Source: a virus (taxonomy: Duplodnaviria; Heunggongvirae; Uroviricota; Caudoviricetes). From it: 41,531 nucleotides of DNA. The position numbers were made by a program. Within the stretch, counting starts at the first letter, position 1. Every line of letters begins with the position of its first letter. The stretch lies in the IMG/VR virus record IMGVR_UViG_2526164634_000028. One strand, 5' to 3'. Below, one piece after another: positions 18,001-21,000 of this stretch.

Positions 18001-21000
18001 CCATTGATATTGCTTATGAAGGTTCCGGCAGTGGTGACTGGCGCACTGACGGTTTCATCGTGGGTGTCGGTTATAAATTCTGATTAGCCAGGTAACACAG
18101 TGTTATGACAGCCCGCCGGTTCAGGCGGGCTTTTTTTGTGGGGTGAATATGGCAGTAAAGATTTCAGGTGTACTGAAAGACGGCACAGGAAAACCGGTAC
18201 AAAACTGCACCATTCAGCTAAAGGCCAGACGCAACAGCACCACGGTGGTGGTGAACACGGTGGCCTCAGAAAATCCGGATGAAGCCGGGCGTTACAGCAT
18301 GGACGTTGAGTACGGACAGTACAGCGTCAGTCTGTTGGTGGAGGGATTTCCGCCGTCACACGCCGGGATTATCACCGTGTATGAGGACTCAAAGCCGGGC
18401 ACACTGAATGATTTCCTCGGTGCAATGACGGAGGATGATGTCCGGCCGGAGGCACTGCGCCCTTTTGAACTGATGGTGGAAGAGGTGGCGCGTCACGCTG
18501 AGGAGGCGAAGAAGAATGCCGGAGAGGCGGAGACGTCAGCGAGGAATGCCGGCATATCAGCCAGTCAGGCAGAAGAGAGCGCTGCAAATGCTGACACTTC
18601 AGCAGGGGAGGCATCGGAGTCAGCCCGGCAGGCGGCAGAAAGTGCAGCCTCAGCAAAGCAGTCAGAGGATGCGTCCTCGTCCTCGGCTTCTGCGGCCGCT
18701 CAAAAAGCCAGTGAGTCATCACAAAGTGCAGCAGAAGCTGAATTGTCAAGAAAGACGGCAGAAAGTGCAGCCGGTAATGCAGCCAGGGATGCAACGACCG
18801 CAGCAGAAAAAGCCCGGGAGTCAGCAGAAAGCGCACAGTCAGCGGAACAAAGCAGGATAGCGGCGGAAGACGCCGTAAACCGAATCCCCACCGTGGTGGG
18901 ACCTCCCGGGCCAAAGGGGGAACAGGGGCCCGCTGGCCCTCAGGGGCCGAAGGGGGATAAGGGAGAGCGTGGTGACACCGGCCCTGTCGGGGCAACCGGC
19001 GAACGGGGACCGGCAGGTGATGCTGGTCCGGCAGGACCACAGGGACCGAAAGGCGACAGGGGAGAGCGGGGAGAGACCGGTCTGACGGGAAATGCAGGTC
19101 CACAGGGTCCAAAGGGAGATACCGGTGCGGCAGGTCCGGCAGGCCCACAGGGACCGAAAGGAGAAACAGGTGCGGCTGGCCCGGTGGGGGCAACCGGACC
19201 TCAGGGACCAAAGGGCGACCCGGGGGAGACACAAATCCGTTTTCGTCTGGGGCCGGCGAGCATTATTGAGACAAACAGCAATGGCTGGTTCCCGGATACA
19301 GATGGCGCACTCATCACCGGACTGACCTTTCTTGACCCCAAAGATGCCACACAGGTTCAGGGTTTTTTTCAGCATTTGCAGGTCAGGTTTGGTGACGGGC
19401 CGTGGCAGGATGTTAAGGGGCTGGATGAAGTGGGCAGTGATACAGGCAGAACAGGAGAATGACATGAACGTACTAAAAAAACTTATGCAGCGTCTGTGCG
19501 GTTGCGGAAAGCATGATGACCGTGAACACGGGGAGTTACTTACAGCACAACTGCGTCTGGGGCCGGCAGACATTCTGGAGTCAGATGAGAATGGCATTAT
19601 CCCGGAGCAGGCCAGGGTAATCACGCAGGTGGTGATACTGGATGCGGATAAAAAGCAGATACAGTGTGTGGTAAGACCGCTGCAAATCCTGCGTGCTGAC
19701 GGGACGTGGGAAAATATTGGCGGGATGAAATAGCCGACGAGTTCACAAAAACCGGAGTCCGGCTCCGGTTTTTGTTGTCATGTCCGGTGGATGTTTGTTA
19801 TGACTCCCTGTGTTTGGAATGAATATTTAATAACAGGTGTCTGGAAATATAGGGGCAAATCTACTGGATAGGCTATTGGGGCGTGAGAATCGAATGGAGA
19901 GAAGAGCTGTGGCTCTGGAAAGGCAATTAAATGGAGGTGTCGATTTTTTAAGGAGTGTTAATAACTATTTTCAGAGTGTCATGGCAGAACACAGAGAAAA
20001 TAAAACAAGTAATAAAATATTAATGGAAAAAATAAATTCTTGTGTATTTGGAACGGATTCTAATCACTTTTCTTGCCCGGAGTCATTTTTGACATACCCG
20101 ATAACGCTGGACACACCTGCGAATGGAGTGTTCATGAGAAACTCACAAGGTGCTGAGATATGCTCTCTATATGATAAGGACACGTTAGTGCAACTTGTTG
20201 AAACTGGTGGAGCTCATCCTCTGAGTCGAGAACCTATAACAGAATCAATGATTATGAGAAAAGATGAATGTCACTTTGATTCAAAAAAAGAATCCTTTGT
20301 TGCAAGTGATGCTTAATTTTTTCTGTTGGTGTGTTTTTATATTAATAGTTTATTATAATAGTGCCATGTAAGGATATATTGTCTGAACAATTATTCAGAC
20401 AATATTTTTTCTTGCTTTATATGAAATATATAATATTTGGATCCTTAATTTCTAACCAAGGGGTCCCATGTTTTTATGTTATGATGCAGCCCATAATTTC
20501 GGGGGCTACATGCAAGAATATCTTTTTCTTCGGCGCCTGATTTGCGTAAAAACGTGGCTGCGCCAGAAGAACAATTACCTTGTGTTTCTGTGAATGGCGG
20601 TAACATTTTGTAAGTCGGTATGTTGTTGAGCATTGTTTTTATATTGTCAGCTGGAATTGATTTTTCTTCATGTAGTGGTGTCGGGATAAGCGTTCCATTT
20701 CTCTGAAGTACTTCATCTGAATATAATCGATGTAGCAACAAACTCTGTTTTGTCTCTATTAATGAGATTGAGTTGATATTGGGTAAGTAACGAATTGATA
20801 ACTGACTGAGTTTTATTACATTTCCTGAATAAAGATACTCACCTAACTCTGAAAATTTCCTTCCTGTTATCTTATCTGTATCATCAGGACTAATATTTTC
20901 GAACATTCTTACGTCTCGCTCTCCTAAGTTTGGTTTTGCATTATCTTTTCCATTGTTTTTATATATCCACATCTCTTTTTTTTCTGAAGGAATCAAATAT

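Follow-up and report, generated by a model that had tools for sequence, protein, structure and literature searches.

We analysed the IMG/VR virus record IMGVR_UViG_2526164634_000028, a stretch of 41,531 nucleotides (in the following the window) that holds a lambdoid prophage of the type found in enterohaemorrhagic and enteropathogenic Escherichia coli (EHEC/EPEC), with the late region in its left half. Here, a gene for a collagen-like side tail fibre is followed by a small gene encoding 89 aa, the product of which is a free-standing paralog of the C-terminal fibre domain, PfC. The small gene is a real coding gene, translationally coupled to the fibre gene and inherited together with it; the pairing is ancient, the protein is made, and the locus carries no signatures of a tip switch or of a cassette. 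Our preferred reading, which we hold with a probability of roughly 55%, is that the stand-alone PfC protein serves as an expressed accessory partner of the fibre tip and is neither a silent spare tip nor an obligatory chaperone.

The gene pair as such is already known from Pfam, the PHROGs, RefSeq names and one paper, and finding it is not a discovery. New are the selection figures, the invariant ribosome-binding site with its 1-nt spacing, an 871-bp exchanged module, the pairing with a collagen-free fibre, the proteome peptides and the lack of switch signatures. The module sits at the host-contacting fibre end of phages that spread Shiga toxin (Stx) and type III effector genes, and is present in about 13% of complete E. 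coli genomes with roughly ten copies each. A conserved and translated partner protein is also a cheap experimental handle on the function of collagen-like lateral fibres, which was called an open question in cryo-electron microscopy (cryo-EM) work.

The fibre and the free copy of its end domain

The fibre begins with PfN, the tail-attachment domain of the lambda Stf type: PF08400 matches residues 1-133 with 1.6e-68 (229 bits, cutoff 26.6 bits), over residues 1-118 the identity to lambda Stf (orf-401) is about 90%, and the whole alignment reaches 76% over 160 aa (E 5e-78). It is followed by an Ala/Ser/Glu-rich stretch (residues 134-250), the composition of which fits the PCoil expected from the protein EPclA, and by the collagen domain (residues 251-361). 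A regex count gave exactly 37 triplets as the longest unbroken Gly-X-Y run, with Pro at 18 of the 37 X positions. The chain ends in the PfC knob (PF06820, Phage_fiber_C; residues 363-426, 1.9e-36) and the tail DEVGSDTGRTGE, the final codons of which hold the Shine-Dalgarno (SD) sequence of the small gene. An original prediction, made from the DNA sequence alone, had placed a lambda-like N-terminus, about 37 uninterrupted triplets and a short C-terminal domain in this region (18149-19733); all of these features were recovered, and the coordinates are exact.

The same architecture is known from EHEC prophage collagen-like protein A (EPclA), for example ECs2717 of the Sakai prophage Sp14, which is experimentally a dumbbell-shaped trimer (Ghosh et al., 2012, PLoS One 7:e37872, PMC3368898). 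Its collagen segment forms a true triple helix with a Tm of 42 C, and PfC alone trimerises and renucleates collagen folding; seven to nine copies that share over 90% amino-acid identity with each other were reported per O157:H7 genome, and the stand-alone PfC gene downstream goes unmentioned (PMC3368898). Recombinant EPclA alone carries a 7-nm knob at its end. EPclA and the window fibre both have 437 aa, a PfN, a 116-aa PCoil, 111 aa of collagen and a PfC at residues 363-426, and nothing substantive differs between them, the likeness being judged on architecture and domain lengths. The published EPclA biochemistry probably carries over to the window fibre, which, going by this match, would be a trimer with a collagen triple helix.

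The small protein was aligned to the fibre product by BLASTP with 23 identities in 62 residues (37%), 60% positives and an E-value of 9e-12, and PF06820 matches the small protein alone at residues 28-89 (9.9e-35, 119 bits, cutoff 25 bits). The homology proposed for the two products is thus upheld on formal alignment, well beyond chance. No Pfam family besides PF06820 was found at E<=1, PHROG 576 covers the full length (1-89 of 89, 8.8e-60), and RefSeq uses the name 'phage tail fiber C-terminal domain-containing protein'. Upstream of PfC, the protein carries the N-terminal motif M-x-[IV]-[LF]-KK-[LI]-x3-L-x-GC-x-K with a predicted helix at residues 3-11, and a linker (residues 17-27) that is variable or deleted in relatives. 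The sequence 'LCGCG' had raised the idea of a lipoprotein, which was rejected: a hydrophobic h-region is missing and the second Cys varies to Tyr or His.

A first AlphaFold2 monomer model, based on a 13-row alignment, was unusable (predicted local distance difference test score, pLDDT, of 53). With distant homologues added, the single-chain model of the PfC part reached a pLDDT of 75-87 and is all-beta, the N-terminus and the linker remaining unmodelled. Sequence searches of the PDB with the single sequence and with a profile gave no match, and the best match of the predicted PfC fold to a solved structure is the fibre of phage Mu. The authors of work on the Stx phage phi24B likewise found AlphaFold not confident on this fibre C-terminal domain.

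The start signals of the small gene are embedded in the end of the fibre gene. The ATG at 19464 lies one base past the fibre stop codon, and the 19-nt string from SD to ATG, AGAACAGGAGAATGACATG, is identical in 64 of 66 related IMG/VR loci, which were taken from the best 80 by protein identity to the query. A single nucleotide separates stop and ATG in 65/66 of these loci, and the pairing itself was seen in 65/66, the gene upstream always ending in PfC; fibre and stand-alone PfC are paired as well in the Stx1 phage AU5Stx1, in lambda h434 and in a diverged locus described below. A search of the + strand from 17300 to 20100 found no sigma-70-like sites. Since the terminator-like hairpin behind lom (18110-18137) leaves no space for a promoter of its own, the fibre gene is read from the late transcript.

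For selection analysis, pN/pS was calculated from Nei-Gojobori counts over the unique alleles of both segments from the 66 loci. The PfC part of the small gene gave 0.048 (pN 0.0066, pS 0.136), its first 27 codons 0.41 and the fibre's own PfC 0.22, while the two off-frames of the small gene gave 1.5-2.7. The small gene is consequently a real coding gene under strong purifying selection, stronger than that on the fibre knob.

A second, diverged version of the pair is present at positions 110-974 of contig AAKHPG010000016.1 (GCA_008387015.1; L087), a locus for which megablast returned no match from the E. coli genome collection. Its fibre of 212 aa lacks collagen, ends in PfC and is similar in its N-terminal half to the N-termini of tail fibres from Yersinia phage fEV-1 and from several Vibrio phages. 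The small gene encodes a 79-aa stand-alone PfC with the N-terminal motif retained, overlaps the fibre end by 14 nt and has an AGGAGG SD; a terminator and then NleG-like and SopA/NleL-like type III secretion system (T3SS) effector genes follow. The small gene is hence paired with a fibre ending in PfC also when that fibre lacks collagen. Between the window and L087, PfC identity is 64% for the two small proteins, 40% for the two fibres and 29-39% for fibre against small protein; therefore the duplication is old and both copies were retained. Of the two copies, the free PfC evolves more slowly than the fibre-borne one.

Evidence for the protein itself comes from the purified-virion proteome of phi24B, in the part of the table (supplement to a 2026 phi24B cryo-EM preprint) that was available to us. 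The peptides ADGTWENIGGMK and VITQVVILDADKK listed there map only to the ORF behind the fibre ('gp59_start', 39891-40295) or to hypothetical fusions added by the authors, and the row at protein level bears the label 'Spike or just gp59?'. Their counts are about 3 each, while those of fibre peptides go up to 181. Gel band 23/24, a low-mass band, is the only one in which the fusion entry has a higher count than the fibre entry (25 vs 24), whereas larger phi24B proteins peak in bands 5-14; by our own reading of the table, this excess fits a free protein of about 10 kDa. The small protein is accordingly made, as far as this part of the dataset shows.

Roles considered for the stand-alone PfC protein

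Both roles that the original prediction had offered, a spare or exchangeable receptor-binding tip and a chaperone derived from it, had been put forward before in the literature and in GenBank, as 'intragenomic reservoir' (PMC5155283), 'alternate tail fiber tip' and 'tail fiber assembly chaperone'. Public records name the gene 'tail fiber protein', 'alternate tail fiber tip (atfT)', 'tail fiber assembly chaperone' or 'phage tail fiber C-terminal domain-containing protein', and a literature search for 'atfT' gave unrelated plant papers only. Mondal et al. (2016) described the 89-aa product of ORF68 in prophage Sp5 as a 'phage fiber C-terminus domain' protein, saw no signal for frameshifting and brought up the reservoir (PMC5155283). 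In their in-frame deletions, made in a K-12 MG1655 lysogen, ORF68 is listed among the non-essential late genes and the phage lacking it is still infectious, whereas the fibre gene ORF67 is essential (PMC5155283).

A silent reservoir, from which the copy would be recombined into the fibre gene to exchange knob and host range, was thus proposed by Mondal et al. (PMC5155283) and is echoed in the atfT annotation. Fibre and small-gene copies do share a 14-nt identical patch (CGTCTGGGGCCGGC) at the RLGPA motif, inside 53 nt of 72% identity near the start of each copy, but overall DNA identity is only 55% over 60 aligned codons, and BLASTN between the copies returned only a 22-nt patch. Gene conversion was rejected: no tracts were found, and the common fibre-knob polymorphisms (AS/GN, N/H, D/G, Q/R, F/L/M, Q/R) are not small-gene codons. 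Because both copies lie on the + strand in direct orientation, an exchange would be an irreversible deletion. Two proteins look like products of such joins. P0065 connects collagen in frame to a small-type PfC at 'GPA' (4 member sequences from 2 samples, the contig beginning inside collagen), and P0179, a single sequence of the reciprocal type, connects the first half of the small gene to the second half of the fibre knob. Compared to several thousand copies, these chimeras look like occasional accidents and not like a mechanism, and the small-type PfC retains its own N-terminal leader in 295 of 296 phage records. A cassette would not need the conserved N-terminal peptide. The invariant SD and ATG (64/66), the strong constraint on the frame (0.048 vs 0.22), the higher identity of the small proteins across systems (64% vs 40%) and the peptides in the examined part of the virion proteome also speak against a spare tip as the main role. 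We regard the reservoir as very improbable.

The recombination or shufflon-like signatures that the original prediction had proposed to look for did not appear. Apart from the terminator, inverted repeats of at least 13 nt at the locus are limited to chance pairs. Neither among the neighbouring genes (J, lom, T3SS effectors, insertion sequence (IS) elements) nor in the annotation of a near-identical RefSeq locus was an invertase or a reverse transcriptase found. An invertible or shufflon-type tip switch was rejected on the direct orientation of the copies and the lack of flanking recombination sites and of a recombinase at the locus, and a diversity-generating retroelement pair on the 55% identity and the lack of an annotated reverse transcriptase in the near-identical locus. 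With the Mu G segment, the P1 C segment (invertase), the R64 shufflon and diversity-generating retroelements, the window shares only the presence of two fibre-end coding copies. In contrast to these systems, its copies are direct repeats of 55% nucleotide identity, the second one has its own start signals, and recombination sites, invertase and reverse transcriptase were not found at the window locus.

As a side observation, many single-member database proteins (among them P0065, P0179, P0035, P0068, P0094, P0168, P0173-P0175 and P0182) are deletion chimeras in which unrelated prophage genes (a cI-like repressor, J, Lom, PfN, tail assembly protein T or an IS transposase) are joined to either PfC copy. 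In the fibre copy their breakpoints cluster near 'DTDGALITG', in the small copy near 'ADILESDENG', which may stem from a hot spot for deletions, from bias in the search or from faulty assembly.

Recoding would make the small ORF part of the fibre: a +1 frameshift or transcriptional slippage could fuse the two and provide some fibres with an extra or alternative knob. Upstream of the ATG, the small-gene frame stays free of stop codons for 44 codons (133-aa ORF), although by our own estimate such a stretch arises by chance in about 1 in 6 cases at this composition. The fibre PfC contains a T7 run (19354-19360), but this is present in only 23 of 64 alleles and broken in most others, and a shift at this site would bisect the fibre knob; a programmed frameshift fusion of the lambda G/GT type was rejected on these grounds. 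The stop context GAA TGA C gives no +1 re-pairing, and a frameshift signal was also not found by Mondal et al. (PMC5155283). While the phi24B authors did put hypothetical fusions into their search database, the examined part of the proteome table holds no peptide across the junction of fibre and small ORF (of the form WAVIQAEQENDMN[IV]LK), and the excess count falls into a low-mass band. Recoding is scarcely credible under these conditions.

Two homopolymer runs were observed in the pair. The T7 run in the fibre knob (GGT TTT TTT) is polymorphic among alleles, and -1 frame variants of the knob exist as database proteins ending in ...FFSAFAGQVW. The A7 run at codons 4-6 of the small gene (19474-19480; CTA AAA AAA) is kept in 65/66 loci and short by one A in one IMG/VR locus and in a Citrobacter rodentium remnant. 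Length variation in either run could switch the respective product on and off.

An obligatory or purely catalytic assembly chaperone, acting outside the virion like lambda Tfa or Mu U, is suggested by the position of the small gene, which is exactly that of lambda tfa, as the original prediction had stated. In lambda Stf-Tfa and Mu S-U (gp49-gp50; PDB 5YVQ/8JU3), too, a fibre gene is followed by a small coupled gene and the pair is swapped horizontally as a unit, and lambda Stf shares its N-terminus with the window fibre. Coupling to the fibre gene, co-inheritance with the fibre tip, one GenBank record with the name 'tail fiber assembly chaperone' and the low virion signal in the examined part of the phi24B table also agree with this idea. 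However, Sp5 ORF68 is non-essential (PMC5155283), and recombinant EPclA, Col-PfC and PfC form trimers, with the collagen refolding, in the absence of the small protein (PMC3368898). Unlike Tfa and U, the small protein is therefore dispensable in Sp5, and the fibre trimerises without it. It is also a paralog of the fibre end domain and has no similarity to Tfa or U: BLASTP gave no alignment to lambda Tfa at E<=100, and assignment to the Tfa family (Caudo_TAP) was rejected, neither Pfam nor BLASTP supporting it. To our knowledge, there is no precedent for a template-type chaperone being a stable homotrimer of the same fold itself, which further counts against this role. A chaperone derived from the tip is conceivable only in a weak, dispensable form, and an obligatory one is unlikely.

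This leaves the accessory-partner reading with the following working model. The two genes would form the distal part of the tail-fibre operon, the fibre being attached to the tail by its PfN end and closed by the PfC trimer as an end knob that may nucleate collagen folding (Ghosh et al., 2012). An old duplicate of this knob has become a protein in its own right, translationally coupled to the fibre and maintained by purifying selection. This protein would form a PfC homotrimer of its own, headed by the short conserved N-terminal helix and the Cys-Gly motif, and act on the fibre tip as a low-copy accessory, be it as a cap, as another knob in line or as a late assembly aid that can stay on. In this way it would tune adsorption on natural hosts while being dispensable on laboratory K-12. 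A more specific and rather tentative version is that the trimer is a virion component that docks via its N-terminal peptide on the terminal knob, resulting in a non-covalent 'two-knob' tip. If true, this would define a class of tail-fibre accessories born by duplication and splitting-off of the tip domain, which would govern adsorption to the O-antigen-bearing natural hosts of Stx and effector-carrying phages.

The distal fibre end of T2/T6-type phages offers a working analogy, as gp38 is a small, separately encoded protein on gp37. It has no sequence relation to the stand-alone PfC, and gp38 is the hypervariable partner and needed for infection, whereas conservation is higher for the stand-alone PfC than for its fibre partner, and the protein is not needed on K-12.

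Several points weigh against an accessory partner at the tip. Receptor-contacting end pieces are usually the more variable partner, and here the small protein is the more conserved one, the opposite of what such a piece usually shows. Binding of the small protein to the fibre tip is something we infer. Since the loci for pN/pS were picked for their protein similarity to the query, pN comes out somewhat too low. In the accessible part of the phi24B dataset, the proteomic signal is small and admitted contaminants occur at similar levels. The phi24B cryo-EM work left the C-terminal globular domain of the fibre unresolved and does not discuss the small protein, and deletion of the Sp5 orthologue had no reported defect on K-12 (PMC5155283).

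Distribution and exchange of the distal fibre module

Among 5426 complete E. coli genomes, 697 carry the fibre-PfC segment, at 6160 places and with a median of 10 per genome, and 698 carry the small gene, at 6807 places and with a median of 11 per genome; both are effectively inseparable across E. coli genomes. The module is missing from 87% of the complete genomes and carriers have up to 15 copies, an all-or-many pattern that fits the multi-prophage load of lineages positive for the locus of enterocyte effacement (LEE). K-12-type genomes match only the lom end and the N-terminal part of the fibre.

Outside Escherichia, the PfC family has very few members. When 1.84 billion representative proteins were searched with a profile, 94 hits came back, for the most part fragments of E. 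coli proteins and deletion chimeras of them, and the homologue search with either PfC as query listed only proteins under about 140 aa, a list from which full-length fibres are absent. A scan of one genome per species returned only E. albertii and two contaminant-like contigs. These two, a 725-bp contig of Xanthomonas pisi DSM 18956 (L085) and a 3.8-kb contig of the metagenome-assembled genome Clostridiales W0P5.003 (L086), carry E. coli-type DNA at more than 90% identity, corresponding to J-lom-stf or the small gene, and are almost certainly contamination or mis-binning in public assemblies. The representative-protein library also contains P0236 (565 aa) with four tandem PfC-like units of about 80 aa each, ending ...LRVRQADGTWKEIPAIKG and with short Gly-X-Y stretches between them; a long collagen segment and a further C-terminal domain come after these units. 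Judged by its sequence, this protein shows that outside Escherichia PfC-like knobs can be strung on collagen like beads, and that PfC can stack in line.

The 871 bp at 18913-19783 are the only DNA common to the long-tailed window prophage and the short-tailed phage AU5Stx1. They comprise most of the collagen (the last ~290 nt), PfC, the small gene and its terminator, and end just past the latter. Therefore, the small gene travels with the distal half of the fibre across tail types and not with the effector cargo. The same distal module is found in the short-tailed Stx phages as Sp5 ORF67/ORF68 (ECs1228 and the next gene), phi24B gp61 and the next ORF, and AU5Stx1 tfpS/atfT, with small proteins 91-98% identical to that of the window. 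In these phages, it is placed on another N-terminal half in a podoviral lateral fibre, EPclB, which contains two collagen segments as well as a Pf2 repeat, whereas in the window it is placed on a lambda-type Stf N-terminus. The classical hybrid lambda h434 imm21 has the same gene pair.

The exchange pattern also bears on a role independent of the fibre, in which a soluble knob freed at lysis would mask the receptor, block superinfection or adsorption to debris, or act on the host. This would agree with the dispensability of the gene for infection (PMC5155283), with the small protein being more conserved than the fibre knob, as expected for a conserved target, and with T3SS effector cargo adjoining in every system seen. 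But the homology to AU5Stx1 ends at 19783, and exchange thus involves the distal fibre half without the effector cargo. In addition, the gene has no promoter of its own, its start signal overlaps the last codons of the fibre gene, and the protein has no signal peptide, its N-terminus being basic and amphipathic and not hydrophobic. We consider such a role quite improbable.

In Citrobacter rodentium, decayed copies of the module were observed (L090-L092:2494-3237), with the fibre reduced to 161 aa and the collagen out of frame. The small gene lacks one A of the A run, gene callers use an internal ATG (78 aa), and the remnant is still followed by an NleG gene.

Layout of the locus and neighbouring genes

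The features of the locus are compiled in Table 1. The hairpin that closes the unit of fibre and small gene has a predicted RNA fold of -26 kcal/mol (z -4.0).

Table 1. Features of the fibre locus in the window (coordinates in nucleotides, residues in brackets)
Feature	Coordinates	Strand	Basis and remarks
Gene J	14001-17414		Upstream of lom
lom	17484-18083		Between J and terminator hairpin
Intrinsic-terminator hairpin after lom	18110-18137	+	Terminator-like site AGCCCGCCGGTTCAGGCGGGCT + TTTTTTG; ends 11 nt before fibre start
Side tail fibre gene, 437 aa	18149-19462	+	ORF, ATG 18149, stop TGA 19460-19462; Pfam PF08400, PF01391, PF06820; PHROG 366/3279 'tail fiber protein'
PfN, lambda-Stf-type N-terminal tail-attachment domain (1-133)	18149-18547	+	PF08400
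PCoil, Ala/Ser/Glu-rich stretch (134-250)	18548-18898	+	Sequence composition, cf. PMC3368898
Collagen domain (251-361)	18899-19231	+	37 Gly-X-Y triplets, PF01391
Exchanged module, 871 bp	18913-19783	+	95.4% identity to AU5Stx1 (L082), blastn of window
Fibre-borne PfC knob (363-426, 64 aa)	19235-19426	+	PF06820
Translational coupling signal	19453-19466	+	AGGAG 19453-19457, 6 nt, ATG 19464; fibre stop TGA inside spacer
Stand-alone PfC gene, 89 aa	19464-19733	+	ORF, stop codon 19731-19733; Pfam PF06820, PHROG 576
PfC domain of the small gene (28-89)	19545-19730	+	PF06820
Terminator hairpin closing the fibre and small-gene unit	19745-19779	+	13-nt perfect arms, 5-nt loop, T run

Right after the terminator of the small gene, a block of low GC content (34-37%) extends from 19837 to 22232. 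It holds ORFs of 159 aa (+ strand), 352 aa (- strand) and 216 aa (- strand), which are named DUF1076 (NleG-type), T3SS effector EspW and DUF1076, respectively, in the near-identical RefSeq locus. The strain of this RefSeq locus carries an IS2 insertion that is absent from the window.

An IS1-type transposase is encoded at 22492-23190 as a single continuous ORF of 232 aa. It looks like an in-frame fusion of InsA and InsB without the usual programmed -1 frameshift, and could represent a fused or always-on transposase variant, or a small deletion. Further downstream, at 24057-26040 on the - strand, the prophage end adjoins potB/potA, judged from the near-identical RefSeq locus; from this layout, the prophage end that carries fibre and effectors abuts the chromosomal pot operon.

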